Positions 7,301 to 23,447 of a stretch of DNA of 23,447 bases are shown piece after piece (within the stretch, counting starts at the first letter, position 1; each line of letters opens with the position of its first letter). The notes beneath the pieces are model-generated. The model saw only the letters and a program-made list of their open reading frames with translations, did no database searches and had not been told where the DNA came from. The stretch spans positions 1-23,447 of the forward strand of contig JAEORO010000041.1 in NCBI GenBank assembly GCA_016840855.1, read 5' to 3'. This stretch comes from Candidatus Thorarchaeota archaeon. Lineage in GTDB: Archaea > Asgardarchaeota > Thorarchaeia > Thorarchaeales > Thorarchaeaceae. The position numbers and the translations under genes were made by a program.

Positions 7301-10300
7301 AATCCAACTGGTGAAACTCGTTGAATTTACAGAACCAACGGAAACGTCGGCTCCAGCTATACCGCTTCCAGTAAGGTAGTCACTATAATAGATCAGGGTG
7401 CTGATATTGAAGAAATAATATGCTGGAGGTGTTGACAAAACTGAGGCTTGTGTAAATCTCGTCGAGATTGTCACTTGCGTTGTCGTTGTTGAATTATCAT
7501 AATACGGTGTAACATCACCCCAATGGAATAAAATCGTAATTGGATATGCATCAACAAGTTCTGAGGTCAATAGAGTGGAACTAAATGATATTAAGTAAAA
7601 ACCATTCTGATCAGTTAGTGTGTACTCAGAATCAAGAATCTGTGTGCTACCACCATGAGTTAGAGTCAATACAGATTTTGTGAGTGGTATTCTTGTACCA
7701 TTTACATCATCAACTACGGTTATTTGAAACTCGACAATTTCGAGGAAAGGTGTAGTCAGAGGTGATCGAGTTACAGAGATTGTTGCGTATCTTCTTACAA
7801 CATCAATGGAAACATCTATGATTCTGCTCCGGTAGAATGGGACCCCTGCTTTACTTGCTGAAACTGTAATTGTATATTGACCAAAGTTACCGAGAGCAAG
7901 GGTTGAAATTCTTATGCGATAGTCTCCACTTGGGAGGGCATCAACCCAGTAGTTGATTCCTAGCTGGAGTGTTGCATTTACACAGGTCGCAGTTATTGTT
8001 GCTCCAAGAATGGATGCATAGGTGTTATCATCAATGTATGATACAATGATCACAGCTTCCTCTAAGAAAACAGCAAGTGATGGAACTTCGCTCGTTAATT
8101 GAGTTCTTCTCTGAATTAGAGTTAGATAGAAGAAATCGTTGGCATTGTAACAAAAGTTTGTTCCCGTGTAAGCTATGGACGCATTCACTGTAAAGATACC
8201 TAGAGATGGAAAGACGCTTGTATCAAGTGTGACAGTATAAGTACCATCCATATTGTTGTCGACATCATAGAAACCAGTGAGTGATGCGTCAAGCGTCAAT
8301 GTTCCAGTACTCAATAGAGATTGGCCATCAAGATCCCTGTAAGTAAATATGATAATCAATTCATTCCCATATTGAATTGATGTGTATGAGCCATGTTCGA
8401 GATTTGTGTACCGATTCCGTATTGATATGGAAATCTGAATGTTTGTACGATTCTGATAATAGGGAGATCCAGACCATTCAACATCGAGATGGAATGTATA
8501 GGTACCTACATTGTTCCACCATGTAGTATCAAGTGTAAGGACGAACTGCTGAGTACCCGCTAAATATGTTGAAGCAATGAGAAGGCCGACTTCCTGAACT
8601 TCATAGCTAAGTTGTGCATCATCAGGAATTCGTGAACCTGAAAGTACATCAATGTAGGAGAAAGTTAAGTTAACCTCATCACCATATGGGACTGTTGGCA
8701 AGGGACTCCATAACACACTAGTTTGTCGATATCGAGTAAATACTGTTATTGCTAAGGTTCGATTCTCATACAGTGGTAGCTGGCCATCTGTCCAATTTGC
8801 ATAGATACGAAGCTGGCATCCAATAATTCCGCTCAAATAAATAGTGTCAAACGAAATCCGATATTCTCCATTACCTAATTCTGTGATAGCCATTAGACTC
8901 TGCGTTAAGGTTTGCCCAGGTGTCAACACATCTATGAAGAAATGGACATTGAGAGGGTATGCACCTGTGCTATTTGTAACACCTGTACTGTTGCTCACAT
9001 CCCAATACACAACTGAAAATGTAATATTCTCTCCATAAGGCGTTGCAATCGGATTTATACCAATATACAGGTCTGTTGGGCTCCCAGCAACCCTTGCCCG
9101 AACGTTGAGGACCTTATTGTCATGTTTGGGTTGTGGTCCGGTCCAATTCGCATAAACGACAATGTCTTTCCATCCAATTGAGCCCCACTGATCTGCTCCG
9201 ATTCTTATAATGTATTGACCTTGTTGACTTCCATTTACTACAGTGAATTGTAGCAATGGTATTCCAGGAGCTTCTGCATAGATTAGGACATCATTACCAA
9301 TAATGCCAGTTTGGGTAGTGATATCAAAATAAAGGACATAGATTGTGATTTGGCCAGTATATGGTGTGGGTTCAATAGGATTATCCAAAGACAGAGAGGT
9401 TAGGTGGGTGACGATATTAATACCAATATCAAAGGTGTGATTCTGATAAGCAAAACGATTGACATCAAAAACAACTGTAAAACCTTGTATAGGATCAGAA
9501 TCAAGGGAGTTGAAGGTTATATCATACTCTCCAGGAGCACTCATCACGATATTATAATCGGACCAATTACAAGAGATTGAACTCTCAGCACCGGATATTG
9601 GGAGATCATGGTCGGTATCCCAATATGTTAGCGTAATGGTTTCTTGATATCCGACTGGTAATGCCAGAATACTTTGAGATACAGATACAGATGTGAAAAT
9701 TTGTCTAACTTCAACAAAAAGGAGAACCTTCGAAGTGATATAGTAGTCTTTCTGTGCAGTGACAATAATGGCGTAGGTGTCTAGGTCTGAATTGTTAGTT
9801 GTGATTGTCAAAGTGTAATTACCGGGATCTCCAATTACTGGATCGATCGAGTATGATGAGTCAGTCCAATTACAATAAAGAGCAGCATTATCGATACCAT
9901 CACCTTCAGAGTCAGCGTAGAAGAGTTGAAGTATTGCATTATCACCACGTGGAACCTGTACACCAGGTGCACTTGCTGACTTTAGTGTTGTTTTTTCAAC
10001 AACATTGATGACAAAGAATCGTTGAAGAGGGTCAAAATACGTTTTACTCCAAGTTATGCTAATCACATAGCGTCCCGGAAGCCCTAAGTCTCCGGTATTA
10101 AGAACGACACTATACTCCCCTGTGCCCATATCATTTAGAGGATGGGTGCCTGTTGTCCAATTATATGAGGCAGACCCCCCAGGTAGTAGGAATCCATTAT
10201 CTGAATCGTTAACACCAATTTGGAGAAGCATGTCCTGACCATATGTAAGATTTCGTTCCCATGTCAGTATTGATTCTCTGGGATAGGCAATGTACATGTC

Positions 10301-12094
10301 GGAACCATGTTCAATTGAAAAAGAACGAGAATAGAATCCTACATTCTCAACAGGAGAACCGGATATTGAATCATTCACAAATGCTTGGACTCTCCATTCT
10401 CCAATTTCCGCAGAAAATGCGTCTAAACTGAGGTCAGTTGTTTCAGCAATCCCAGAGGAAACAACAGCATTCATTGTATTCCATAGTTCACCTAACGTAT
10501 TGTAAACATTAAATGTCACAATAGCACCATTGTATATTGAATCGAGATATGCTCGAAAACGAACATTATCATTGGCTCGATAAGTTTCAGTTTTAGTCCA
10601 CGCTGCACCACTTGACATTCTTAAATCTTGGATGATATTATCAGAATGTCCAGCAATCCTCCAGAAGCCATTTTGGTAAGTCCCAACTACTCCCTCGTAT
10701 ACTGAAATATTCAAACTATCTGAAGTTGCAGACCAGTATGGAAAATTAACTCCAGGAAAACGAGGCTGCGAAACCATGTCAATCGCGAGAGTGTTTGATT
10801 TACTTGCGTTGAAATAGAAGAAATTCGAGTATCCATTTGGAACAGCGATATAATAATATGTTAGCCATTGGACCTGACTTGCATTTGAAATTGTATAACG
10901 AGTCCCTAGGCTTTGAACATCAGCTTCGTACAAAGAAGATTGACCTACTTTTCTAGCATATACTGTCATGTCAACTGAAAATGTTACGCGAATATCTTGG
11001 TTAGGATTAGGATTGACTGGAGAAGGAGTCCAACTAAAAGTAGCATTTACAGCACTACCACTCCACGGTGTTGTTGTTGATTGCCAAACAGAGCCCAAAC
11101 TCCACAGCCAACTTAACCCATCTGAGGTATTGGTAACTGTTTTACCGTTCATTTTCAGATTAACTTGACTAGGAGTTACTCGAGATTTGACGAAGATCCT
11201 AACATCATCCATTCGGACTTCTGGATTAAGTTGAGGATTACATCCAAATGACCGAGTGGTTCTCATACCAACTTGCAGAACAAAGTTTGATGAAGTAATA
11301 AGCGATGGATCAGCTTCAACTAATCCTGTTGAGTACCATGTTGTTTTGGAAAGTACATCGCTGAATTGAATATTCCATAGGTGATTATCAACATCATCAT
11401 CATGTCCAACTTGTGCGTATAGCTCCCAAAAACCAATGGGGAGTCCACCCCATAAATCATCAACATAGTATCTTAGAGATACCCCTACCCAAGTCACCTC
11501 GCCCCGATTAGTATTAATGGTCTGTTCTGCAAATGCCCTATCACCAAGATCGTGTCGGTAATAGTTATTGTCATAGATTCCACTCATAGTGAATCTAACA
11601 TAACCACCAGTTATTGTAGAAGTAATAGGGTTTGAATGGGTGGGAAGATCATCAGTACCTAATGTCCAATCCGCTGTGGAGTCAAAACCCGGATTGGTAA
11701 GCCAAGTTCGATTCTCTTGAAGATCACTCACATTGATGAACATGTCAGTACCCTCCCAGAGAGGACCCAGAGGAACTGACACTGCTTGCGTCGTTGTTGT
11801 GTTTGAGGTATAGTAAGCTAGGTCTAAATCATCAAAATGATTTGTCCGCTGACCATATTCTGAAACTACAAGAGGAGATCCTTCGCCTTGGATGGTAGTC
11901 GGAATCTCAGAAAGTGAGAAAGTTTCAAGAACCTCATCAGGACCTACTTCTATGAATTGACCGTTGCCAACATCAACCACTCGTGAGGGTTGAGAATTTG
12001 ATTGATGGATGTTTGAATTTGTTCCAATCAAACCAAAACTCAAGATGAGGGATGTTATCACAAAAAGGAGGCTCAAGTTCTTTTTCACTTTCAT
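4385..12094 (-). CDS. Giant type I membrane cell-surface protein A (2569 aa): signal peptide, beta-rich jelly-roll-like head, MG2-like domain, ~17 Ig-like repeats, TM helix, ~190-aa helical cytoplasmic tail
   Basis: N-terminus MKVKKNLSLLFVITSLILSFGLIG. Recurring ~100-aa unit (PxYG...YxDxD...I.GA...G.Y.....T). Hydrophobic ISTILVLLIAALGALYF followed by a basic stretch (positive-inside). Many N-x-S/T sequons. SD GTGAGGAG lies 8 nt upstream. Confidence 0.95.
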   Translation of the reverse strand: MKVKKNLSLLFVITSLILSFGLIGTNSNIHQSNSQPSRVVDVGNGQFIEVGPDEVLETFSLSEIPTTIQGEGSPLVVSEYGQRTNHFDDLDLAYYTSNTTTTQAVSVPLGPLWEGTDMFINVSDLQENRTWLTNPGFDSTADWTLGTDDLPTHSNPITSTITGGYVRFTMSGIYDNNYYRHDLGDRAFAEQTINTNRGEVTWVGVSLRYYVDDLWGGLPIGFWELYAQVGHDDDVDNHLWNIQFSDVLSKTTWYSTGLVEADPSLITSSNFVLQVGMRTTRSFGCNPQLNPEVRMDDVRIFVKSRVTPSQVNLKMNGKTVTNTSDGLSWLWSLGSVWQSTTTPWSGSAVNATFSWTPSPVNPNPNQDIRVTFSVDMTVYARKVGQSSLYEADVQSLGTRYTISNASQVQWLTYYYIAVPNGYSNFFYFNASKSNTLAIDMVSQPRFPGVNFPYWSATSDSLNISVYEGVVGTYQNGFWRIAGHSDNIIQDLRMSSGAAWTKTETYRANDNVRFRAYLDSIYNGAIVTFNVYNTLGELWNTMNAVVSSGIAETTDLSLDAFSAEIGEWRVQAFVNDSISGSPVENVGFYSRSFSIEHGSDMYIAYPRESILTWERNLTYGQDMLLQIGVNDSDNGFLLPGGSASYNWTTGTHPLNDMGTGEYSVVLNTGDLGLPGRYVISITWSKTYFDPLQRFFVINVVEKTTLKSASAPGVQVPRGDNAILQLFYADSEGDGIDNAALYCNWTDSSYSIDPVIGDPGNYTLTITTNNSDLDTYAIIVTAQKDYYITSKVLLFVEVRQIFTSVSVSQSILALPVGYQETITLTYWDTDHDLPISGAESSISCNWSDYNIVMSAPGEYDITFNSLDSDPIQGFTVVFDVNRFAYQNHTFDIGINIVTHLTSLSLDNPIEPTPYTGQITIYVLYFDITTQTGIIGNDVLIYAEAPGIPLLQFTVVNGSQQGQYIIRIGADQWGSIGWKDIVVYANWTGPQPKHDNKVLNVRARVAGSPTDLYIGINPIATPYGENITFSVVYWDVSNSTGVTNSTGAYPLNVHFFIDVLTPGQTLTQSLMAITELGNGEYRISFDTIYLSGIIGCQLRIYANWTDGQLPLYENRTLAITVFTRYRQTSVLWSPLPTVPYGDEVNLTFSYIDVLSGSRIPDDAQLSYEVQEVGLLIASTYLAGTQQFVLTLDTTWWNNVGTYTFHLDVEWSGSPYYQNRTNIQISISIRNRYTNLEHGSYTSIQYGNELIIIFTYRDLDGQSLLSTGTLTLDASLTGFYDVDNNMDGTYTVTLDTSVFPSLGIFTVNASIAYTGTNFCYNANDFFYLTLIQRRTQLTSEVPSLAVFLEEAVIIVSYIDDNTYASILGATITATCVNATLQLGINYWVDALPSGDYRIRISTLALGNFGQYTITVSASKAGVPFYRSRIIDVSIDVVRRYATISVTRSPLTTPFLEIVEFQITVVDDVNGTRIPLTKSVLTLTHGGSTQILDSEYTLTDQNGFYLISFSSTLLTSELVDAYPITILFHWGDVTPYYDNSTTTTQVTISTRFTQASVLSTPPAYYFFNISTLIYYSDYLTGSGIAGADVSVGSVNSTSFTSWISDKGDGTYQILVDTTTLYGLGRYYFTVNISWYGTPFYTNVTNLSFSVVVNSVSTTLSFTLPQGVIYYLGDEIHANITYTAIEFGVGIPDANITSNWNSTYPTIATISMIDIGVYEMIIQTSGMDAGLYSFSISASKYLHQNKTILADILLAAVPVQIELSFVPTNPLWGDPIDFQANITDARNGSPIDGAYVNLTISSIAVNMTSVGSGLYTCTIQSWQIGAGEYTITVSSFLLNYETRQRDFQIRIDKIASKISGSLDPLSTVNGLPVRIEIDYLLYSNSSPIVDGLVTYSWIGGSGQLVWSVLDGKYVVEFIVSGVPVGTHQILIQASSANYKSRSMQLTIEITELSTSLIAISDFIVTVNYRDLANITVYLNNTDLNTFVSEAILSFGVGPLVGNLSELATPGYYCALIDTTPLGVQEWTVIISSAKPGYTPSSIQFTLAVEVVETDIVLITSATLNAYYGEEVTFRLFFNDTHSNEGIPGAITNYTLEQFKGSLIDYGNGTYSLTLNTSLVRAGSIPHDISVSFRKENFRFASTLLKLLVNPIRTIIMGELEAEFAVYDDYTMLFGFWDDLNGEWIEDGLATAYWEFGTVQLTNLHNGSYAFGPDEANLATPLQDRASPYQIRISISRGNYSRGEIEFFLTIREIATELTTTALPSLIFVGRVFLINVTYFDTDHSIAISDAEITVVSRSSLATSDLIHETSLDINHGNGTYTLAFRAPDLAYYRLQIIFSKNDYQSATVEFDIYTDLSPEQEALVSGFRISTILVLLIAALGALYFRVLSVPKLLRIIRRMIRTLERRMIPKPADVPLRRSMLLAMMNEDLKKVGIMKTVDDISLSTVDVTIMDVEQLLEQLATVVGLTPDDIDTLRQDLDKMRPSERAGFINEVLKQERSRRARELAEAEKIVEEGAPSEVVEERLSEEELLHLRERLIKMGIEETEADLMIEQARNLSKSEIEALLEEIGGMDE
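4397..4403 (-). promoter_or_regulatory. Shine-Dalgarno site (AGGAGGG) for gene B, embedded in the last codons of gene A
   Basis: Minus strand reads AT-AGGAGGG-ATGGACGA-ATG(A), with an 8-nt spacer to ATG 4388. Confidence 0.75.
5055..10310 (-). repeat. About 17 tandem ~100-105 aa Ig-like (beta-sandwich) repeats in protein A; protein-level repeats, diverged at DNA level; boundaries approximate
   Basis: 17 repeat starts counted by eye, from LTYGQDMLLQIGVNDSDNG, VPRGDNAILQLFYADSEGD and LPVGYQETITLTYWDTDHD through to IFVGRVFLINVTYFDTDHS. Confidence 0.8.
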
Positions 12095-12236: not shown

Positions 12237-14390
12237 TTATATCGTACACGACATCACTTTTCTTTTCATAGCATAAACTCCAAGAGCAATTACGATGCAA
12301 GCTGTCGTTGCAGCTATAACTAGTGGAAATAGCCAATCAGGAGGATTCTGTACTTGAGCGAGAATGTTTCTTCTCGCCACATTCATACCCCAGTCCCATG
12401 CTTCAATCCAAATTGTCAGATTTGAAGTGTGACTAGGCACTTGAGCTATCACGGTCCAATTGTTTCCGTTAAAAGACATCGGAAATGCCTTGATGGCGCC
12501 TTCGTCAGCTTGGATATATAATGTAACATTTTCAATACCAGAAAAGTCATCAGTCACATATGTCCAACAAAGAAACTCTTCAGATTCTACTTCTTCAGGT
12601 ATTGTTCCCCACGCATGAATCACAGGGGGAACCAGGTCTGAGATAGAAAAAAGGTATCGTCTAATCCAATCTTTGGCAACTAAAAGTGCATCATAAGTTC
12701 CACGCCAATCCATCTCATTGTAGCATACTTGTGCAATTTCAAAGGCGTTGGATACATGCTGTTCAGCAAATTCGGTTTCAGGTCTATCTTCTGTTGTAAG
12801 TGGTCTATTCAAAAATTCTTCCCAGAGTCCTCCTTCCATCTGATCTAAATATGTGCTCTGAACCCAGTTCTTGTCAAAGGTTGATGTCCCATTGTGGTAA
12901 GCAAAATAGCCCATTGGCCCCCATGAAAAATCACTTGAATAATGTTCATGCTGCCATGAATGATGAAACCCGATTGCATGCATAGTTTCATGAAGTTGTA
13001 CTGATGATATCCCATCTTTGGGTGTTACACCATCAGATCGATAATACCGTTCCCATGATTTCCAAATGACAGTTTGACCATCCCCTCCTAACCCGGTGAA
13101 TGTTCCGTTATACGCATGCATCTCCATCTGTTTCTTGATGAAAACAACTCCAAACACTGTGATATTACCATCTTCAACCACGTATGCGGGTTTCATAGAA
13201 TTGTAGATTGCATAAAACATGTCAGTACCATTAACAACAGTAGTTCCATCAGGTTCAATGGCTGCATAAGTCCAGAATAGTGAATTCCAGAGAGGTTCTT
13301 TGTCAATATCGTAATAGTCAATATCGACAGTCCAATCAATAAATGGATAGAGCTCTTCAAGGTGAGACTTTTGCATTTCTGAGTTTGTAATCCATTCAAG
13401 ACTTTCAATAGATGTTCCATTTGCTACATCCATGCAAAACACGAGAGACTTCAAGGTTCCTGTAGAAACATAACTGGCAGGTTGATGTTGGTACGGGAAG
13501 AATAGTTGTGTAATTGGATCCCAGATACACTCCCTCAAGTACACATTGAGAGCATCAACATCTACAGGAATTGTCAAATTCAGAGTTCCCACTTTGTCCT
13601 CGAGGTCTTGAGTCCAGAAATCATACTCTGTACCGATATTTTCACTCCACCAAATTCGACACCATTTCAAATACCATTGGTGAGCACTAGGGTCTATAAT
13701 GTATGAGTTGTAACGTCCACCAAAGAATGGATGGTCCATAGTAACATTGGGATTGAGTGCATTATCCCATTCTAAACGGAACCAATCTTGTTCTTCTCCT
13801 GTATCAGGATCAACAGGATGGTAGTCATACCAATGCTCGAGACTGTGATCAGCACTATCAAATGTAGAGAAGTTAACAAGGTATAGTGTGTATCCCGGAT
13901 TTGGAGGAAGCACGAATGGATTTTCCTCTAGCCAATCTTCAACGGCATAACCATCAATAACACGACCATCTCGAGGAAAGAATATCCTTTGTGGCTCATC
14001 AGGGTTATTCTTTTGGTAGGACAGCGCAGTCTCATCAAGTCTAGTTCCTGTGCTAGTCCCATTCTTTGAATTATCTTGCATCACTTGGCGAAGTTCATCA
14101 AAATAGCTGTTGTCTGCATAATAGATGTTATAGTTGATAGTATATGTAATTTCAGCAGTATCAGTAGCGTAGTATCTGACTGTAGGTAACCCCTGTAGCA
14201 GAATCGGCTCATCAATCATAGTTGGATTATACCCCACCACTATGATATTAGCATACCAATCTCTCACAATCGGGATAGGTTCTGGAGGAGGAAGATAAAT
14301 TTCAGTACTTCTTGGAATAGGTCTTTCAATAACAGCAGGAACTGTGACTAAAAGGAGAAATACAATGCCAAGAACAAGAGTGGTACGCAT
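12237..14390 (-). CDS. Secreted, C-terminally membrane-anchored metzincin-type zinc metalloprotease (717 aa)
   Basis: Signal peptide MRTTLVLGIVFLLLVTVPA. HETMHAIGFHHS fits HExxHxxGxxH (12960-12992). Candidate Met-turn WGPMGY. Ig-like DLVPPVI...IEAWDWGMN domain. C-terminal TM LFPLVIAATTACIVIALGVYAM followed by KRK. Confidence 0.88.
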   Translation of the reverse strand: MRTTLVLGIVFLLLVTVPAVIERPIPRSTEIYLPPPEPIPIVRDWYANIIVVGYNPTMIDEPILLQGLPTVRYYATDTAEITYTINYNIYYADNSYFDELRQVMQDNSKNGTSTGTRLDETALSYQKNNPDEPQRIFFPRDGRVIDGYAVEDWLEENPFVLPPNPGYTLYLVNFSTFDSADHSLEHWYDYHPVDPDTGEEQDWFRLEWDNALNPNVTMDHPFFGGRYNSYIIDPSAHQWYLKWCRIWWSENIGTEYDFWTQDLEDKVGTLNLTIPVDVDALNVYLRECIWDPITQLFFPYQHQPASYVSTGTLKSLVFCMDVANGTSIESLEWITNSEMQKSHLEELYPFIDWTVDIDYYDIDKEPLWNSLFWTYAAIEPDGTTVVNGTDMFYAIYNSMKPAYVVEDGNITVFGVVFIKKQMEMHAYNGTFTGLGGDGQTVIWKSWERYYRSDGVTPKDGISSVQLHETMHAIGFHHSWQHEHYSSDFSWGPMGYFAYHNGTSTFDKNWVQSTYLDQMEGGLWEEFLNRPLTTEDRPETEFAEQHVSNAFEIAQVCYNEMDWRGTYDALLVAKDWIRRYLFSISDLVPPVIHAWGTIPEEVESEEFLCWTYVTDDFSGIENVTLYIQADEGAIKAFPMSFNGNNWTVIAQVPSHTSNLTIWIEAWDWGMNVARRNILAQVQNPPDWLFPLVIAATTACIVIALGVYAMKRKVMSCTI

Positions 14391-14723: not shown

Positions 14724-16160
14724 ATGACCCTAACTAAGAAACCCTCTATTGCTGAAATTCTGGACATAAAGTCAGTTGCAGTTGTCGGTGTATCTCCCAA
14801 CTTTGGCTACTACTGGGTATACTCAATGCTTCAATGGGAACACAACCTCAGGCTCTGGTTCATTTCTAGGCGAGGCGGCGAAATTCTAGGCCATAAGATA
14901 TTAACACAGATAGATGAAATCCCTGAGAAAATAGACTATGCAATCATTCGCGTTCCATATACGATCGTTCCTCAAACTTTGAGAGAGTGCTACAAACAAG
15001 GCGCGAAGGCTGTGACCATTTTTACTAGTGGATTTTCTGAATTAGGGACTGAAGAGGGCATGGAGCGAGAGAATGAGATTCGCAGGATACTGGATGAAAC
15101 AGGAATGAGGGCATTTGGTCCAAACTGCATGGGCTTGATGTACCCTAAAATTGGATTTGCATTTATGCCTACAATCAAAAGGTTGGCTGGAAACGTAGGA
15201 TTCCTTTCGCAATCGGGAGGTGTCGCAATCACCACCTATACAGCAGGTGTGGAATCAGGTGTAGGCTTTAGTAAAGTGTTCAGTTTTGGAAATCAGGTAG
15301 ATATAACTCCTCAAGAACTTCTAGATTTCTTTCGAGAGGATGCTGAAACAGAGGCAATTGGAGCATATTTAGAGGGAGTCAAGAATGGCAAGAAAATCCT
15401 AGATTCAATGAAGAAGCTGGCAGATAGAAAACCAATCGTCGTTTTGAAAGGTGGAAGGTCAACAGAGGGGTCTCGAGCAGCTGCCTCACATACTGGAGCA
15501 CTTGCTGGCAGCAGAGAGATATGGCAGGCAGCATTCCGCCAAGCAAATGTTGTAACAGTTAATACTGTCGAAGATTTGGTTGCTACTTTGAGTATTTTCT
15601 CTCTAAGCCCAAAACCAAAGACACGAAATGTGGGGCTCATCGCAATTAGTGGTGGAGCTAGTGTAATTCTAACAGATCTTTGCATTGAGAAGGGGCTCAA
15701 TGTGCCAAGGACTTCGGATGATACAATTAAAAAACTGGACCCACTAATTCTCGATGTTGGTACAGGTTTGGGGAATCCTATAGATCTTGCTGCGGATTAT
15801 TATCAAGATCAGACTACATCAGAAGTAATACGAATCGCTGGAGAAGATACAAACTTTGATTCATTGATAATCGAAGCTGATGTACATAATATGCATCAAG
15901 TAGCGACTATAATGGATGCAGCCGATGTACTAGTCGATTATTGGAAAGTTATGGCAAAGGCTGCGAAGACAGTCGTGAAAACGAAAAACAAACCAGTTCT
16001 AGTTGTCATTCCTGAAGTGGCATATCCAATTCCAAGAAATGACGCATGGAATATTTTTGTCGATCATGGACTTCCTGTATTTAGAAATATAACAGAAGCT
16101 GTAAGTGCTTTGTCCCGAGTTTGTGATTACTACGAAACCAAGGAAGAGCGAACGAATTAA
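14724..16160 (+). CDS. Acyl-CoA synthetase (ADP/NDP-forming) alpha-subunit-like CoA-binding protein (478 aa)
   Basis: KSVAVVGVS CoA-binding start, FTSGFSELG, GPNCMG, SQSGG, SFGNQVDI, YLEG, KGGRS, AASHTGALAG (phospho-His loop) and NPIDL. No ATP-grasp domain. Confidence 0.92.
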   Translation: MTLTKKPSIAEILDIKSVAVVGVSPNFGYYWVYSMLQWEHNLRLWFISRRGGEILGHKILTQIDEIPEKIDYAIIRVPYTIVPQTLRECYKQGAKAVTIFTSGFSELGTEEGMERENEIRRILDETGMRAFGPNCMGLMYPKIGFAFMPTIKRLAGNVGFLSQSGGVAITTYTAGVESGVGFSKVFSFGNQVDITPQELLDFFREDAETEAIGAYLEGVKNGKKILDSMKKLADRKPIVVLKGGRSTEGSRAAASHTGALAGSREIWQAAFRQANVVTVNTVEDLVATLSIFSLSPKPKTRNVGLIAISGGASVILTDLCIEKGLNVPRTSDDTIKKLDPLILDVGTGLGNPIDLAADYYQDQTTSEVIRIAGEDTNFDSLIIEADVHNMHQVATIMDAADVLVDYWKVMAKAAKTVVKTKNKPVLVVIPEVAYPIPRNDAWNIFVDHGLPVFRNITEAVSALSRVCDYYETKEERTN

Positions 16161-16162
16161 TA

Positions 16163-16771
16163 CTATACCTTAACAATCCAAGTCACTAGTTCAGCGTTCA
16201 TTGAGTTTTCATTAATGAATGAATCTCGATAAGTAGGATTACTAAGTGCAAACCAAACATATTGCATTTCAAAATCAAAGCCAATAATTTTGAATGATGC
16301 TTCTAGAGCGGATGGTTGAAATGAAACGTAAACGAAAACGAGTGAAAGAATGAGAATGAGTAAGTAAGAATAAACCCAAGAGCTTACTGGTCGTCCAGCC
16401 CAATAGTCAGCACCTGCATAGAAAAGAGCAAAAATCGAAGCACCAGCTACAATTGAAGCAATGATTGTGGAAAGACTTCGCATCCTCATTTCTGCATTAT
16501 CTGAAATCGAATGATCTTCGCATACTTCCACAAGGAAACTTTTACTCATATCGTTTGTTTGATGGTTTTTCCCATATGGATTCAAATAAGAGTCCAAGCC
16601 AGGACGAAGCCAAATCTTATGTCCAGGATTTGCAAATATTCGCGTAGTTTTGGACGTCTGAGCTCCACAGACAGGACATATTTTTGGAAATCTAACTCTA
16701 CTAACCTTTGTTCTTACGATTGGTTCATCGAAATAAAGCCGATGTCTTGGTAGAGTCAAAGGTTTCATCAC
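16163..16771 (-). CDS. Hypothetical membrane protein with a CxxC...CxxH zinc-finger-like motif and two TM helices (~201 aa; start GTG 16771 or ATG 16768)
   Basis: CPVC and CEDH motifs. Hydrophobic segments IIASIVAGASIFALFYA and VYSYLLILILSLVFVYVSF. Confidence 0.8.
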   Translation of the reverse strand: MMKPLTLPRHRLYFDEPIVRTKVSRVRFPKICPVCGAQTSKTTRIFANPGHKIWLRPGLDSYLNPYGKNHQTNDMSKSFLVEVCEDHSISDNAEMRMRSLSTIIASIVAGASIFALFYAGADYWAGRPVSSWVYSYLLILILSLVFVYVSFQPSALEASFKIIGFDFEMQYVWFALSNPTYRDSFINENSMNAELVTWIVKV

Positions 16772-16835: not shown

Positions 16836-17966
16836 TCATAAATAGGCTTTTTCGATTTCATTAATGACATATTTTCTCATGCTTCGAGAAGTGACGAGTG
16901 GATGTTTAAGTTGAACATCCTGCAAAGATTCAACTTCCTGCGTTTTCAACGAAAATCCAAGGTCTGCAAAACTTGCTTTTACTTTTTCAAGTCCAACACC
17001 AAAGTGTTTTATCCCGACATTCAATGCTTCAAGAATCTTGTATCCATAATGAGTCAACCAAAGAGAATTCAAAAGAGAAGTACTTCCTTTGGTAAATACC
17101 ACAGTATTTTCGATTTCTTTAGCTCTCGCTTCGACGATCTTGGGGATGAGTTTTGATGCGCTTGTTTCTTCCATGGCTTCTGTATCTAGAAAGAGGGTTG
17201 GACCGTTTCTTGATATCTGTTCATCAAGAAGCTCCACAGTACGATTGAAGATGACTTTTCTTGCAGTTCTATAATCCATAGAAGCCTTAGTCGTGTCCAA
17301 GATTTTAGAGGGGTCACCATCGAAACCTGCAAGCTCCTTCATGCCTAGTCCAATTAAGAGACCTCGTTGAACACTATACCAGTTATCTTCTGTGATATGT
17401 TCTAAAACAGACAGGATTCTATCTTGAATGTGAGTCCATCCCATGTTCCTAGCTAAGTCATCATATAACGCCCACATTAAAACTGGAGGCGCGGTCCATG
17501 GAGCTTTATCCGGTCGAACAAGTAAGAAACGTTTAGCTAATTCTTTAGATGTAAAAAAGAAGCGGAAAATATTGTCAGCAGACAAGACCACAGATGAATC
17601 AAGCATCACACTTGAGTGCGTAAATATTGGAGTAACATCCAAAGTCTGTAGGCGATTCTGAGTTAGAATTATTTTTTCTAGCCCGGAGCATCGGACTAGT
17701 GGCCAAAGATTAAGAGAAACCAAATGGTTATTCTCCAAATGAATTTCTGATATGGTTTTGTTTTTTGAGAGAGGGCTAAGTTCAAGTTCCTCAATCATGT
17801 TATTTGCTAAATTTAAGGCAGTTAGTTTTTCACATCTTTCGACATCAGAGAGGTCGACTTTCTTTGCTGCTCTCGTTGTGAGGTCGATCTTCGTGTCCGC
17901 ACAGTGGAATTTCCTTTCTTCTTGACGTCCATGAGGACTCCAGTACCTGATAGAAATTTCGTCCAT
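16836..17966 (-). CDS. Cytoplasmic leucine-rich repeat protein (376 aa) with an uncharacterised helical C-terminal region
   Basis: LxxLxLxxNxI/L repeats: LTALNLANNMIEELELSPL, ISEIHLENNHLVSLNLWPL, LEKIILTQNRLQTLDVTPI. No signal peptide or TM. Confidence 0.88.
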   Translation of the reverse strand: MDEISIRYWSPHGRQEERKFHCADTKIDLTTRAAKKVDLSDVERCEKLTALNLANNMIEELELSPLSKNKTISEIHLENNHLVSLNLWPLVRCSGLEKIILTQNRLQTLDVTPIFTHSSVMLDSSVVLSADNIFRFFFTSKELAKRFLLVRPDKAPWTAPPVLMWALYDDLARNMGWTHIQDRILSVLEHITEDNWYSVQRGLLIGLGMKELAGFDGDPSKILDTTKASMDYRTARKVIFNRTVELLDEQISRNGPTLFLDTEAMEETSASKLIPKIVEARAKEIENTVVFTKGSTSLLNSLWLTHYGYKILEALNVGIKHFGVGLEKVKASFADLGFSLKTQEVESLQDVQLKHPLVTSRSMRKYVINEIEKAYL

Positions 17967-18035: not shown

Positions 18036-21000
18036 CTAATCTTCAGTTTCATGGGGAGAAGGAAGTTTGGAACTAGCAGCAATTAGATACCCATTATCAA
18101 TTGCCTCTAGAGTGCATTTGTAAGCCGTTCTTTCACTGTGCCCCAGTACACTTATTGATTTGATTATTGCATCTACAGAAACACCATGGTCGATATCCAT
18201 TGACTCAAGCGCTTCTGAAACGACGCTAAGGTGTTTTGGTATACTCTTTGAAACACCAACATATCTTTTCATAAGCTGACCATCAAAATGATTGTCAAAA
18301 ATTGCGTAAAAGGACCCATTTAGGGTTGGAGTTCTAACCATTTTTCGAATTGCTTCATCCTCTTTATCATAGAGACCTCCGACCTCACTTCCGAAAGCCT
18401 CTAGCTGAGCTTTCTGTCTACTCGACGCGGGTTCGATTGTTACTATAGCACAAATCAGTGCCTCGGTCTGAACAGCAGTGATTACCTCAGTGATTGGAAT
18501 TGCAGTCCAAATTGGCTCATCCATGGAGAATTCAGATCGAAACTGAGATATTGCAGAAATTAAGGAGCTTAGTAGAGATTCCTGAAAACCTCCCTTTAGT
18601 ATGTTTGAATAAACTGGCAAACCAATTGATCGATGTATCACAAGCAATCCAATCAAATTCCTTGCATCATCAATACGGCCTTTCAGATCCAGTAATTCCA
18701 AGTTCCTTTTAGCTGTTGAAGACATATAGAAACGGCGGCCTACGGTAATTGCTGTGAATGAAATTAAGACAAGAAAACCTCCAACCAAGCCAGCTCTGAA
18801 AGTAACGTCGTATAGAGATTCAGGATTTGGAATTTCAATATTGATTTCCGTACTACTGCTTTCAAAATATGGTAATGATACTTCTACTAAAATTACAAAA
18901 TTCCCGGTGCCAATTGAAGTTGTATTAAAATCAGCCTCCCACCAGCCTTTCGCTAGATTGGGATTGAATTTCACATTGCTTATGGTCCAGTTGCCAATCA
19001 CATCAGCACCGCTTAAAATTGGATTACCATTATCTTGATCATAAAGATAGACTTCTGCCGTGAATCCTTCTCCTGATTCAATTTTCTTGTTAGGAGCGTT
19101 GGCAAAAACGGTCAATCTATGATATAGTTCAAAAGTTGCTGAACTATAAGCAACCTCAGTACCATTAGTCCATAAGATGGACACCATCCAAGCTCCGATT
19201 GAGGCATTAGTCGGACCCAATGTAGCTCCCTGACTAACAACTTCAGAACCATTTGAATTTCTAACTTCTTCACTCATCCAAATGCCGCCAGATGGAGTAT
19301 ACCAGCTCAACTCGACACTACTTTCATTTGGGATGAGTTGTACATCACTACCAAACAATGCTCTACATCTAATTCTGTCACCACTGTGGAATTCAGATTC
19401 TGCAGTCCATGGTAACCCGGAGGGACTTTCGACTTCCGTAGAAATGGAATCGGCATAGTTGATTCCATCCATCATGATTTTCCACCAGCCTACAGAGTCA
19501 ATTACTCCCGAAGGAATCTCAAGATAACCTGACTCAACGATAGCCTGACTAGAAACATCACTACCGAAGGGACTCTCCACTCTAGGATTTTCCCAGTCAA
19601 GAGGATAATACATTCTTATACCAATATCTTTTGCTTCAGTGTATGATTTTATGTATGTGTACATGGTGAATTCTGGTATAAGATCAAGTTCCACACTATA
19701 TGAAACACCTTCATTCTGAAGATTGTTTGAATACGTGGAGTTGCAAAAGCGTGTCATTTTTGTTATCGATACCATGTATTCAAAGGAAATGCTTGAGTTT
19801 GATGAGAAAAATAACGAGTTTGATGACTTCCACCAATAACTATTATTCAATGTTATTTCACCAATCCCATTACTACCAGAAATAGGGAGGCTTCCAAGTG
19901 GTGTAATGTTAATGGTGAGATCCACGGTATCTGGGTCCGGCACTTGGTTTGCTCTCAGCGATAAATCATCAATCAGTAGAGTTATGAATCTTCCATTTGT
20001 CGGATCTCCATCCAAATCAGGATCTGTTTCTGAAATCTGAACATAGCTAGAGTTTGTATTAACTTCTAAGGATATGCGAATTTGAAATGTTTGAGGAGCA
20101 TCTGGAATAGTGAAGGGAATCCGGTTTGTGTTATACCATATCCCCCTCTGCGTAATGTTAGTTGGATCTGTTGACCAGCTCCATAACATATCTGAACCAT
20201 TTAGGACCACAAAGCTAAATCTGAAAATATCACTATAGCTCGTACCAATAGGTCCTCGTTGGTACAGGTAACTCATACTAAACTCAAACTGTTCAGTTAA
20301 TCGACTATTGTCAACATTTTGATACCAATAGATTTTCGTACCATCATAATGACGATATCCATTTGGAGAGGTTACCTCATATCCCTCATTCTCTATCCCA
20401 ATGTATTTTGGATCTGTATTAATGTACGATGCACGTTGATATCCATGGTAATCAAGATATTCTCTTCTCGCACGCCAACCTTCTGCGTAATAAACTGCAT
20501 CACCACTCCAATCCACAGCTGTGCCAGGGTTTCCACTTTCAAAGGTTCCATTTAATGCGTGAAGAATCTGTAGTTCTCGAACATCAACCTCAATTTGTTC
20601 AGCTCTCCATCCACCGTCTCCAGTAATGACATCAATGCTGAATGAATAGCTTCCTGAAGGAACAAGATTTGCACTTCCTACAGAATCAGTCAAGTCACCC
20701 TCGAATTCATAATAATGAGTCAAACCATCTTCTGTACCAGAGAGTGACTTATTGTAGTCACTCTTTATATCTTCCAAACTCCTCGCTATATTGTAGTATC
20801 GAAAATCGTCCACATGACCGTCAACTTGACCATTGGTGTATGCTCTAGAATTCATGATATTGTTCTCGGTATGGAGTCCAACAACAGAATCAGGCCATGC
20901 TAGCAAAGAAGCATCCTCAAAAGGTTCAGTTACCTCATCACCACAGTAGATTCTAAGAAAGTTTGCAGATTGATCCCACACGATTGAAATGAAGTACCAG

Positions 21001-21536
21001 TTATCTGGAATCCAATCATTCTTTGTTCCAAATAGAGTGTTATCTGAGCCCCAGTCGAGTACTAATCTACTTCCTGAAAAGCGAGTTTCGAAATTACCAT
21101 TTTGACCCCAGAATCGACCATGTGGAGCAGTCACATCCCATTTAATCCATAATGAAATAGTTCCCTCGGGTGAACCAAAATTAGCTGAGCCACCAAGGCC
21201 AACCATAAAATAGCCACCACTACAATCTGCCGAGCGAGTGTTACTCTCGGAACCTGCGGGAAACAGTACTTCAGCACAAGGATTATGCTCAGAGTCGGTC
21301 CTACTGGTAACATACTGCGCTGTTCCAGATGGAGCTCCAGTATGCTCTATGAGAATTGGATTCAGATACCCAGTCTCAGGTCTCACATCATAACTAACAC
21401 TTTGCGGGTTATTCTTTTCCAGTAGGGTAAAATTTGTTATTTGAGAAAAGGTGTTCCGATAAACAAGTGGGATTATTGGCACCCATGCTAGCATAAGTAT
21501 AATTGATAGTAGCTTAGCTACATGGGCCTTTTTCAA
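18036..21536 (-). CDS. Single-pass receptor-like protein C (~1166 aa from TTG 21536): signal peptide, LamG/ConA-like domain, A/B-family head, one Ig-like repeat, TM, cytoplasmic longin-like and winged-helix-like domains
   Basis: GGAGGT lies 6 nt before TTG 21536, giving MKKAHVAKLLSIILMLAWVPIIPLV. LamG motifs: TISLWIK, NWYFISIVWD, GHVDDFRYYNIARSLEDI. TM AGLVGGFLVLISFTAITV-GRR. Longin-like IGLLVIHRSIGLPVYS...LLSSLISAISQFRSEF. C-terminal AYKCTLEAIDNGYLIA. Confidence 0.9.
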   Translation of the reverse strand: MKKAHVAKLLSIILMLAWVPIIPLVYRNTFSQITNFTLLEKNNPQSVSYDVRPETGYLNPILIEHTGAPSGTAQYVTSRTDSEHNPCAEVLFPAGSESNTRSADCSGGYFMVGLGGSANFGSPEGTISLWIKWDVTAPHGRFWGQNGNFETRFSGSRLVLDWGSDNTLFGTKNDWIPDNWYFISIVWDQSANFLRIYCGDEVTEPFEDASLLAWPDSVVGLHTENNIMNSRAYTNGQVDGHVDDFRYYNIARSLEDIKSDYNKSLSGTEDGLTHYYEFEGDLTDSVGSANLVPSGSYSFSIDVITGDGGWRAEQIEVDVRELQILHALNGTFESGNPGTAVDWSGDAVYYAEGWRARREYLDYHGYQRASYINTDPKYIGIENEGYEVTSPNGYRHYDGTKIYWYQNVDNSRLTEQFEFSMSYLYQRGPIGTSYSDIFRFSFVVLNGSDMLWSWSTDPTNITQRGIWYNTNRIPFTIPDAPQTFQIRISLEVNTNSSYVQISETDPDLDGDPTNGRFITLLIDDLSLRANQVPDPDTVDLTINITPLGSLPISGSNGIGEITLNNSYWWKSSNSLFFSSNSSISFEYMVSITKMTRFCNSTYSNNLQNEGVSYSVELDLIPEFTMYTYIKSYTEAKDIGIRMYYPLDWENPRVESPFGSDVSSQAIVESGYLEIPSGVIDSVGWWKIMMDGINYADSISTEVESPSGLPWTAESEFHSGDRIRCRALFGSDVQLIPNESSVELSWYTPSGGIWMSEEVRNSNGSEVVSQGATLGPTNASIGAWMVSILWTNGTEVAYSSATFELYHRLTVFANAPNKKIESGEGFTAEVYLYDQDNGNPILSGADVIGNWTISNVKFNPNLAKGWWEADFNTTSIGTGNFVILVEVSLPYFESSSTEINIEIPNPESLYDVTFRAGLVGGFLVLISFTAITVGRRFYMSSTAKRNLELLDLKGRIDDARNLIGLLVIHRSIGLPVYSNILKGGFQESLLSSLISAISQFRSEFSMDEPIWTAIPITEVITAVQTEALICAIVTIEPASSRQKAQLEAFGSEVGGLYDKEDEAIRKMVRTPTLNGSFYAIFDNHFDGQLMKRYVGVSKSIPKHLSVVSEALESMDIDHGVSVDAIIKSISVLGHSERTAYKCTLEAIDNGYLIAASSKLPSPHETED

Positions 21537-21542
21537 TGGTGG

Positions 21543-21548
21543 ACCTCC
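21543..21548 (-). promoter_or_regulatory. Shine-Dalgarno site GGAGGT supporting the TTG start at 21536
   Basis: Minus strand reads TC-GGAGGT-CCACCA-TTG-AAA-AAG. Confidence 0.7.
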
Positions 21549-21769
21549 GAACTTTATTAGTCGGATATTAACTAAGGACACAAAGGCATTTCTATGTATG
21601 TCTGCACCCCTGCATCCAAACGACTCAACATGACATAATATCTTAGTTATAGTAACTATTTCAGCAAATGTTGTGTGAACCGGTTGAGTCATTTGCGGAC
21701 TATTTTACTAGCAATCCATCTAATTGACAGATGACCTTTACAATTTGAAACCAGTATTTGGACAAGCAA

Positions 21770-23236
21770 CTAGATCAATCCAACTTTCTCGTTGAACTGT
21801 ACGATGAGCTCATCAATTTTCGGAGTGGTTTGTTGTATATGTTCCCAGTATGCAGGATAGTCATACCATTGTCTGTTAAGCTCGTCCAGACCAAAGCCTT
21901 GTTGTTCAATCCAAGTGAAATATTTCAAGTGATGGACTCGCTTTCTATCATAGTGGTTTAACTCAATCATAGCATCTGTCTTCTGACCCATGAGGTGTAG
22001 ATAGTAATCTTTGATAGCATCTTTTCCATTATACTCCCCATGAGCATGTCGTGCTTCTCTGATGCGTGATTGATACATGTCCATTGAGTCAGTGAAGACG
22101 GTCAGAACAACATCATTTTTGGTCAGTTCATAATATTTTGCAAACTTGATCGACATTAGTAAATTCGCAATACTTGAAATCCCTAACAGGTTAAGTTGCG
22201 ATACTATTGATTCAGGTGCACCAACTTCACTGGTTAGATATTTCCGTCCAGCGTCTTCATTGAATAACCGAATGAGGTTCATAGTATCATTATCGTCAAT
22301 AGCGATTATGTTGTCTGTGTTTCGGACATTGTGAATCCATGGGACATGTTTGTCACCAATCCCCTCAATTCTATGAGCACCATATCCATTTAGCCAAAGA
22401 GTTGGACACTGTACAGCCTCACCAGCGGCAACCTTTGATGTTGGAAATGAATGTTTCATGAAGTCCCCAGAACCAATGGTGCCTGCAGATCCAGTGGTTA
22501 AACATACACCTCTATAAACGTCGTTGCCTAGTTCTTTCTCGAGAACCTCTTTCATTGCATGACCTGTTATGTCATAGTGCCATAGATAATTGCCAAACTC
22601 GCTGAACTGATTGAAAACAAAGATATTATCCCTTGTAGCTTTAAGTTCCGCAACTTTGTCATAAATCTCCTTGACATTACTTTCGCTTCCAGGAGTTTTG
22701 ATTATCTCACCAGCTACTGTTTTGAGCCAATCAAATCGTTCTTGACTCATTTCTTCAGGAAGAATTGCCACACTTTCACATGCCAAGAGACTTGCATCAT
22801 AAGCTCCACCTCTGCAATAGTTACCAGTGGATGGCCAGACAGCTTTGTGTAGCGTAGGATCGAATTGACCTGTCACTAGAGGAGGAACCAAACATCCGAA
22901 CGCAGCACCAACTTTGTGAGCTCCTGTTGGGAACCATTTCCCAACAAGTGCAATTATCCGTGCTTCTACTCCAGTGAGCTCATAGGGAATTTCCATGTAA
23001 TTCGCAATAGGTCTAAAGAGACCTCCCTTATTGATAGGTTCATTCTTCCAAGTGATTCTGAAAAGGTTCTGAGGAACAACATCCCAGAGAGCGATGTCCT
23101 TCAGTTCATCCTTGATTCTATCAGGCACTCTAACGGGGTTTCTCATCTGCTCAAACGTTGGTATAATGATGTTACGTTCGCGACATCGTTCAACAGTTCT
23201 CTTAAGCTGGGTTTCATTTACTGTCAAGTCAATCAT
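21770..23236 (-). CDS. Pyridoxal-5'-phosphate-dependent enzyme, fold type II (tryptophan synthase beta/cysteine synthase superfamily), ~488 aa; substrate unknown
   Basis: FPTGAHKVG (Schiff-base Lys), PSTGNY, TTGSAGTIG phosphate loop and HRIEGIG. TGAGGA lies 7 nt upstream of ATG 23236 (MIDLTVNE), preferred over the ORF-track start at 23275. Confidence 0.9.
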   Translation of the reverse strand: MIDLTVNETQLKRTVERCRERNIIIPTFEQMRNPVRVPDRIKDELKDIALWDVVPQNLFRITWKNEPINKGGLFRPIANYMEIPYELTGVEARIIALVGKWFPTGAHKVGAAFGCLVPPLVTGQFDPTLHKAVWPSTGNYCRGGAYDASLLACESVAILPEEMSQERFDWLKTVAGEIIKTPGSESNVKEIYDKVAELKATRDNIFVFNQFSEFGNYLWHYDITGHAMKEVLEKELGNDVYRGVCLTTGSAGTIGSGDFMKHSFPTSKVAAGEAVQCPTLWLNGYGAHRIEGIGDKHVPWIHNVRNTDNIIAIDDNDTMNLIRLFNEDAGRKYLTSEVGAPESIVSQLNLLGISSIANLLMSIKFAKYYELTKNDVVLTVFTDSMDMYQSRIREARHAHGEYNGKDAIKDYYLHLMGQKTDAMIELNHYDRKRVHHLKYFTWIEQQGFGLDELNRQWYDYPAYWEHIQQTTPKIDELIVQFNEKVGLI

Positions 23237-23447
23237 TCTACATTCCTCATATGATGACACACAAGACGGATGCAACTCCTGAAAAAGGATTTCGGCATGA
23301 CTGCATGATTATAGATGCGCCTCAATAGACAGTTTAATAATGAACCATAGTGAATAGCGATTTAGCTTAGAGGATTAAACTCCCCTAATTGATGATTAGC
23401 GATAATGCCATTTTGAATCTCGCTTTTGGTTCAGGCTAGAACCTCAC

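Follow-up and report, generated by a model that had tools for sequence, protein, structure and literature searches.

The stretch of DNA analyzed here (referred to as the window) comprises 23,447 nucleotides, positions 1 to 23,447 of the forward strand of contig JAEORO010000041.1 from the Candidatus Thorarchaeota archaeon assembly GCA_016840855.1, and all positions below are those of the window. On its minus strand lies a gene (designated G) for a large surface protein whose C-terminal tail is predicted to fold, on the cytoplasmic side of the membrane, as a domain of the roadblock/longin type. A sequence-only reading of this DNA had described the product as a lectin-bearing single-pass protein with a longin-like and winged-helix-like tail. 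The peptides that it quoted from the tail are present in the translation, the one beginning NLIGLL at residue 1012 (window 18659) and the one beginning VSVDAII at residue 1171 (window 18182). Hydropathy and comparison with homologues show the protein, as predicted from sequence, to be of the type-I single-pass kind, with a signal peptide, an ectodomain of ~890 amino acids (aa), a transmembrane (TM) helix and a cytoplasmic tail of 229 aa. The features of the gene are as follows (residues are numbered in the long open reading frame (ORF), and tail residues from the first residue of the tail; a and b denote helices and strands).

18036..21692, minus strand: listed ORF of the tail-bearing gene, beginning at an ATG and coding for 1218 aa; the coordinates include the stop codon.
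18036..21536, minus strand: likely real coding sequence of the gene, 1166 aa, TTG start.
21459..21527, minus strand: N-terminal hydrophobic segment, read as the h-region of a signal peptide; residues 56-78, maximum Kyte-Doolittle (KD) 19-mer 2.22, position in agreement with the N-termini of homologues.
20763..21185, minus strand: Laminin_G_3 domain (PF13385, concanavalin A-like lectin/glucanase superfamily) in the ectodomain; residues 170-310.
18795..20762, minus strand: remaining ectodomain, beta-rich; residues 311-966.
18726..18794, minus strand: predicted TM helix AGLVGGFLVLISFTAITVG; residues 967-989, 19-residue KD mean 2.02.
18657..18719, minus strand: basic juxtamembrane helix, candidate N-terminal helix of the roadblock type; tail residues 3-23, block pLDDT (predicted local distance difference test) 92-97.
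18333..18656, minus strand: predicted core of roadblock/longin fold; tail residues 24-131 (b1 24-31, b2 37-42, a1 49-65, b3 75-77, b4 82-86, b5 90-96, a2 102-119, a3 123-131).
18246..18332, minus strand: helical linker with conserved F143, D148 and L151, from the model and from conservation; tail residues 132-160.
18075..18245, minus strand: acidic winged-helix-like unit; tail residues 161-217 (helices 164-174, 184-193 and 198-210, strand 214-216), with G195 and E198 conserved.
18039..18074, minus strand: unstructured acidic C-terminal end, the least conserved stretch; tail residues 218-229, pLDDT below 50 at 221-229.

The listed ATG (21692) is probably wrong and lies too far upstream. We doubt it because a TTG codon at residue 53 of the ORF (21534..21536, minus strand), with GGAGG just 5' of it, gives a protein of 1166 aa with a signal-peptide-like N-terminus, matching the homologues P0130, P0002 and P0137, which are 1166 aa long each and start with M-K-[KR]-T followed by a hydrophobic run. 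The segment assigned to the TM helix is the second strongest hydrophobic stretch of the protein after residues 56-78, and an equivalent segment, in line with the single pass claimed earlier, recurs across the family: 96 of the 101 homologues with at least 45 aa upstream of the tail have a hydrophobic 19-mer (KD of at least 1.4) just ahead of it, and in the other five this segment is weaker (KD 1.12-1.38). The net charge of the juxtamembrane helix averages +3.85 and is positive in 94% of 99 aligned tails (that of the window protein and 98 homologues), and such a basic stretch directly after a TM helix fits the cytoplasmic side for the tail. As a further test of topology, N-glycosylation sequons were uninformative, with 16 in the ectodomain against one in the tail and 10.6% of shuffled sequences reaching 16 (not significant). 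The lectin label of the ectodomain was borne out by the Laminin_G_3 match (34.8 bits against a Pfam gathering cut-off of 27.6, E 2.2e-8), the only Pfam family found across the whole protein. The same domain is precomputed on several homologues, and Ig-like Pfam families also occur in the ectodomains of homologues.

The tail (residues 990-1218) was modelled with AlphaFold2 using an alignment of 45 sequences (A1), with a mean pLDDT of 90.4 and a predicted template modelling score (pTM) of 0.85. In the model, the elements follow the order alpha-beta-beta-alpha-beta-beta-beta-alpha-alpha (the juxtamembrane helix and core listed above), as expected for the roadblock/longin superfamily, in which helices flank a five-stranded antiparallel beta-meander, and then comes a small helical unit, which begins with helices 137-147 and 149-152 and strand 155-158 and continues with the winged-helix-like elements. 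The beta-beta-alpha-beta-beta-beta-alpha pattern, which the sequence-only reading had placed at about 18365 to 18665, is present in the model inside this interval. Searched against the PDB with Foldseek, the model gave two matches at E ≤ 0.001, both of them Sec22b longin chains (best E 5.7e-4), and all of the 48 matches listed are, judged by entry titles, entries of longin- or roadblock-containing assemblies. Those listed include small and medium subunits of AP-1/2/3 and COPI, VAMP7, Mon1-Ccz1 and Fuzzy-Inturned/CPLANE, as well as Gtr/Rag C-terminal domains, Ragulator/LAMTOR, GATOR1/SEA, FLCN-FNIP and an Asgard Roadblock2 (PDB 9jq8). For single-domain targets the target-normalised TM (template modelling) score (TMt) was 0.5-0.65 over ~125 columns. 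Overall, the roadblock/longin-type fold proposed for the tail is supported by this comparison of models, at the fold level only; no match to Pfam Robl_LC7 (PF03259), Longin, Clat_adaptor_s, Sybindin, Sedlin or similar families was found in the tail or in the 45 members of the alignment. A PDB profile search with A1 also returned intimin/invasin-type Ig matches, which we discarded as coming from ectodomain columns of the longer members and not from the tail.

Longin domains are the best fold matches (Sec22b with TMt 0.53-0.58; AP sigma chains with TMt 0.54-0.65 and a root-mean-square deviation (rmsd) of 3.7-4.2 over ~125-130 columns), albeit the model does not favor this label over roadblock. 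As described in PMC10933270, a roadblock domain has both N- and C-terminal helices, packed on one face of the sheet with the central helix on the other, whereas in a longin domain the N-terminal helix is missing and its place is taken by an additional helix at the C-terminal side. The modelled tail has a conserved N-terminal helix plus two helices C-terminal of the sheet. Like roadblock/LC7 proteins of the MglB/LAMTOR2 type, it has a five-stranded sheet within the element order alpha-bb-alpha-bbb-alpha (PMC10933270); like longins, it has two helices after the sheet in the model but, unlike them, it starts with a helix. The pLDDT of this helix suggests that residues 3-23 are part of the domain rather than a plain stalk. 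Its residues R17, F18, D20 and N23, which make its C-terminal half the conserved one, are retained at 82-96%, and this refines the longin label given earlier. Hence the element order may be read as a full roadblock (MglB/LAMTOR2 type) as much as a longin, and we file the predicted domain under the roadblock/longin superfamily with no choice between the two. There are also differences from both groups in setting. Known roadblock/LC7 members are small and soluble or fused to GTPases. The tail matches neither Pfam Robl_LC7 nor PDB chains by sequence, is joined through a TM helix to the end of a surface protein of ~1166 aa, and has an extra C-terminal unit. SNARE longins, in turn, are N-terminal on tail-anchored proteins, whereas here the domain comes after the membrane span in a protein of type-I topology.

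A core common to the roadblock, longin and profilin folds, as described in PMC10933270, brings up a small-molecule sensor of the profilin-like alpha/beta class (GAF/PAS-like), by which a cytoplasmic metabolite would be reported to the ectodomain or to partner proteins, and conserved polar residues (S40, E65, D80 and T87) are present in the tail. On the other hand, none of the 48 Foldseek matches listed is a GAF or PAS protein, and no Pfam sensor domain was matched by the tail or by the 45 members, so that we regard a sensor as very improbable.

The winged helix seen by the sequence-only reading at the C-terminal end of the tail stood as to the order of its elements, but not as to a significant match. 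A separate model of tail residues 133-229 (pLDDT 84.5) produced no Foldseek match at E ≤ 0.001 (best E 0.47). The top rows are often Fur/Mur DNA-binding domains, linker histones H1/H5 and the winged helices of KAT6A and RPC39, with unrelated folds (kappa GST, ribosomal proteins) interspersed, and Pfam Linker_histone reached E 0.2 only. A winged helix, which is a three-helix bundle with a beta-hairpin wing at its C-terminal end, is plausible by element order and by non-significant fold matches of the model. These same matches (Fur/Mur, linker histones and KAT6A among the folds, Linker_histone in Pfam) would speak for a membrane-tethered transcription factor with the winged helix as its DNA-binding part, perhaps active once proteolysis has freed the tail. 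On the other hand, the unit is acidic, with a net charge of -4 in the window protein and a family mean of -2.7; its third helix has an average charge of -1.7, with positive values in 4% of the 99 tails of the alignment. It has no significant match to any DNA-binding family, and it is less conserved than the roadblock/longin core. A DNA-binding winged helix was rejected on the charge of the unit and of its third helix, and we disfavor the tethered transcription factor as extremely improbable. From its composition, we read the unit as a protein-binding module and not as a DNA binder.

The tail defines a family confined, as far as its members are named, to Asgard archaea. An HMMER scan with the tail over 1.84 billion cluster representatives retrieved 126 proteins at E ≤ 1e-3 (E ≤ 1e-10 for 118 of them, E ≤ 1e-30 for 54), with lengths up to 2342 aa. 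In all 126 representatives the match forms the C-terminal end. Of the matches, 108 extend to tail residue 205; in 88 of these the protein continues for no more than 30 residues, and in none for more than 83. The pattern seen in the tail is thereby more than a product of chance. A word-indexed search listed 86 proteins of 669-2132 aa, and wherever a source gives a name, it is "hypothetical protein". Named members come from metagenome-assembled genomes (MAGs) of Thorarchaeota, Sifarchaeia or Promethearchaeota, and the clusters nearest to the tail in a protein atlas are in Archaea only. Leads from this atlas to TrmB and HTH_47 clusters scored 0.80-0.81, under the level required for more than a lead, and were dropped. 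We found no evidence of stand-alone soluble tails among the short matches, which lie mostly on contigs of 1-4 kb and of which the NCBI-named ones (five out of five) are marked partial.

For the 72 members with at least 500 aa before the TM helix, the ectodomains form one single-linkage BLAST component, which may stem from repeated Ig-like domains. The idea of a cassette shuffled onto unrelated ectodomains was rejected, as these long members are all linked. By sequence, the family looks like one expanded group of surface proteins that all end, on the inner side, in the same TM helix and tail. Two length classes are seen, of about 1150-1170 aa and about 1540-1580 aa, the orthologues noted being those in L003, L004, L006 and L007 of seven related loci (L001-L007), which are all from Asgard MAGs, were found with two-sequence alignment and represent close relatives only. 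The tails of both classes are closely related, which points to an ectodomain that gained or lost ~400 aa while the tail was retained. Judged by common locus-tag prefixes among the named matches, there appear to be several paralogues per genome.

Conservation was computed over 98 near-full homologous tails aligned with that of the window protein. G35, A58 and F62 are conserved at 100% and P77 and T87 at 99%; beyond the polar residues of the core named above, D120, D148 and E198 are conserved as well. The information per element peaks in b1, b2, a1, b3 and b5 (3.0-3.3) and is lower in a2 (1.9), a3 (1.3) and the helices of the winged-helix-like unit (1.4-2.3). According to PMC3747258, pairs of longin and roadblock domains dimerise via b3 and a1, and GTPases sit on the single-helix face. 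The coincidence of the conservation peak with the dimer-interface elements a1 and b3 is suggestive, although a part of this conservation must belong to the hydrophobic core.

Pairing of this kind could be the whole function. The tails would then act as an oligomerisation or lattice module that has no need of a GTPase, pairing as homodimers or with paralogues and thereby ordering the giant surface proteins from the cytoplasmic side, as a stand-in for the missing order of an S-layer. Roadblock and longin domains are habitually dimeric (PMC3747258; PMC10933270), another Asgard archaeon is described in PMC9834061 as having complex surface proteins without an ordered S-layer, paralogues within one genome would offer partners, conservation is highest in elements known from dimer interfaces, and the neighbours scanned contain no GTPase gene. 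On the other hand, a lattice leaves the conserved winged-helix-like unit and residues D120, D148 and E198 unexplained, and the dimer in known systems usually serves as a platform for something else. We consider such a module somewhat unlikely.

The genes around G were compared between the window and the seven related loci. In the closest of these, L001, which is labelled Thorarchaeota, the tail is 91% identical, in agreement with the Asgard origin proposed earlier. The gene order G, F, E, D (on the opposite strand), C, B is kept in L001-L006 within the reach of the contigs, whereas the downstream genes of the most distant locus, L007, encode other products, namely a protein with Ig domains and a transporter of the major facilitator superfamily (MFS). 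The gene next to G is a candidate partner by position only:

16836..17966, minus strand: gene F, a 376-aa protein with leucine-rich repeats (LRR) at residues ~28-122.

Its LRR_8 and LRR_4 matches are under the Pfam cut-offs, and LRR proteins of the PDB were matched at E 3.7e-6 and weaker. No hydrophobic or TM segment was found in F, which we read as cytoplasmic, with a C-terminal half that is helical and matches no assigned family. The gene lies 69 nt downstream from G on the same strand, and a homologue occupies the same position directly downstream, on the same strand, in six of the seven related loci (spacing 50-75 nt, overlapping in L006), the exception being L007.

This neighbour bears on a further explanation, namely that the tail is an adaptor or sorting handle, which would take hold of a helix in some protein of the cytoskeletal, motor-like or coat-like kind, or also of the LRR neighbour, and so place the surface protein in protrusions or membrane zones. 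The models for such binding are LC7/roadblock with the dynein intermediate chain and LAMTOR2/3 with LAMTOR1; a helix-binding site is offered by roadblock dimers, as PMC10933270 describes, and the fold neighbours of the tail include AP/COPI small subunits and SNARE longins, which act in sorting. The conserved position of F would add to this. However, synteny in those loci extends over all of G-F-E-D-C-B, with an unrelated gene for an acetate-CoA ligase among them, so that adjacency may only mirror close kinship, and the neighbour in L007 is a different one. An adaptor seems quite unlikely to us, and F stays no more than a candidate for a specific partner, its adjacency to G being part of a longer syntenic block and absent in L007.

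The other genes of the block were noted in passing. Gene E (16163..16771, minus strand) encodes a 202-aa protein with an N-terminal CxxC zinc-ribbon-like stretch (weak matches only) and two hydrophobic segments, and it is syntenic in five loci. Gene D (14724..16160, plus strand), also syntenic in five loci and the sole plus-strand gene of the block, encodes a protein like the alpha type of ADP-forming acetate-CoA ligase, with Succ_CoA_lig and CoA_binding domains and a TIGR02717 score of 333 bits, which is under the cut-off of the model. The gene at 12237..14390 (minus strand) encodes a 717-aa protein with a signal peptide and a C-terminal TM anchor, without a family match and with 57-73% identity in related loci. 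Two giant surface paralogues, A (3..4388, minus strand; more than 1462 aa, running off the window) and B (4385..12094, minus strand; 2569 aa), are 33% identical to each other over ~1500 aa, and residues 632-954 of the G ectodomain resemble both of them (BLASTP E 5e-5 for A and 3e-10 for B). Protein B starts with a signal peptide and ends, behind a TM helix near residue 2366, in an acidic helical cytoplasmic tail of ~185 aa that is unrelated to the roadblock/longin tail; it gave no Pfam match above cut-off. On the other side of G, the gene at 21770..23275 (minus strand) encodes a 501-aa PLP (pyridoxal phosphate)-dependent protein resembling cysteine synthase, well below the equivalog cut-offs. 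It shares 84-85% identity with its counterparts in L003 and L006, and in these two loci a transglutaminase-like protein is found further upstream of it.

In eukaryotes, domains of the fold assigned to the tail serve as platforms on which small GTPases dock. By analogy with roadblock and longin domains elsewhere, the cassette would act as a docking platform rather than as an enzyme. It would be fixed directly beneath the membrane, probably paired with a second copy, with helix a1 and strand b3, the elements conserved best, turned toward a cytoplasmic partner, the likeliest being one of the many small GTPases of Asgard archaea or another roadblock/longin protein. In this way, the position or the state of the surface protein would be coupled to machinery inside the cell. 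The winged-helix-like unit would serve, on the model of NPRL2/NPRL3, as an accessory for binding proteins, with no role in DNA binding. Two observations on Asgard proteins are in line with such a platform: Asgard roadblock proteins crystallise as dimers, and in one Asgard genome 26 of the 74 sequences related to small GTPases are combined with roadblock or longin domains (both from PMC10933270).

Several results weigh against a docking platform. The Foldseek E values are modest (5.7e-4 to 0.04), with query-normalised TM scores (TMq) of only 0.3-0.4. Pfam gave no family at E ≤ 10 with the tail alone, and the 45 alignment members, scanned singly, yielded 24 Pfam families at E ≤ 0.1, none of them roadblock or longin. 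A sequence search of the PDB with the tail found no match below E 0.35, and one with a tail-only profile (A2) found none. The conserved residues of a1 and b3 are partly hydrophobic and may simply form the core. Finally, no small GTPase or roadblock gene is present among the neighbours scanned in the window and the seven related loci. With respect to this last point, PMC10933270 reports for one complete genome that GTPase genes as a rule share no operon with genes for roadblock, longin or TRAPPC3 proteins; the genomic context neither supports nor excludes a coupling of the tail to GTPases. Overall, we tentatively favor a membrane-held docking platform, probably paired and with its a1/b3 side toward a partner in the cytoplasm, for which a small GTPase or another roadblock/longin protein is the best candidate, and put its likelihood at somewhat less than even. 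The further proposals of glycan binding, receptor signalling and a GEF/GAP function toward GTPases found no support in the results.

Among known systems, the tail is nearest in architecture, and in architecture only, to NPRL2 and NPRL3 of GATOR1/SEACIT, in which a longin domain is followed by a winged helix-turn-helix (PMC3747258). A preprint (10.1101/2020.10.19.343400) reports longin proteins of the NPRL2-like kind from Thor and Loki MAGs, among them the majority of the Thor MAGs. Entries of the SEA complex and GATOR1, identified by entry title, are among the Foldseek matches of the tail, with 254-285 columns aligned at an rmsd of ~13 Å and TMq of 0.33-0.34. Unlike NPRL2/NPRL3, the tail has no Pfam match, NPR2 and NPR3 included, and one winged-helix-like unit instead of two or more; moreover, the NPRL proteins are soluble and carry the longin domain at the N-terminus, where the tail domain is not N-terminal. 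The nearest functional analogy would be with the membrane-attached longin/roadblock platforms for GTPases, the SRX domain of signal recognition particle (SRP) receptor alpha with SR-beta, and Ragulator (PMC3747258). Those platforms attach through a partner, TM-anchored in the case of SR-beta and lipidated in that of LAMTOR1, whereas the tail is attached by its own polypeptide, and neither the SRP receptor nor Ragulator involves an extracellular domain, unlike the protein studied here. In none of the systems compared does a TM helix of the same polypeptide join the domain to a large extracellular part. In a literature search that left subscription papers and preprint supplements outside its scope, no TM-anchored roadblock/longin tail was found described in Asgard archaea. 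The family may already be among the 130 roadblock/LC7-superfamily asCOGs which, along with 94 small-GTPase asCOGs, are counted among eukaryotic signature proteins in the preprint cited above (10.1101/2020.10.19.343400).

The analogy can be carried one step further, to a family of plasma-membrane receptors in Thorarchaeota-type Asgard archaea. Their tail, a roadblock/longin plus winged-helix platform in the style of Ragulator or GATOR, would recruit eukaryote-like small GTPases to the cell membrane, or regulate them there, depending on the contacts made by the giant ectodomain. In this extended form we judge the proposal unlikely. If true, GTPase platforms anchored in membranes would have a forerunner in prokaryotes, and the Asgard cell surface would for the first time be linked directly to eukaryotic-signature machinery.

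As for the family itself, the cassette is absent from Pfam, and defining the tail family would annotate more than 100 protein clusters. Asgard genomes are rich in roadblock/longin proteins and small GTPases; in the two cultured strains no internal membranes were seen, and the site of action of these proteins is given as unknown in PMC10933270. A roadblock/longin domain joined to the inner end of a surface protein would provide a fixed address, and a handle, for where such proteins act. The tail may thus show how Asgard archaea link the cell surface to their eukaryote-like internal machinery.

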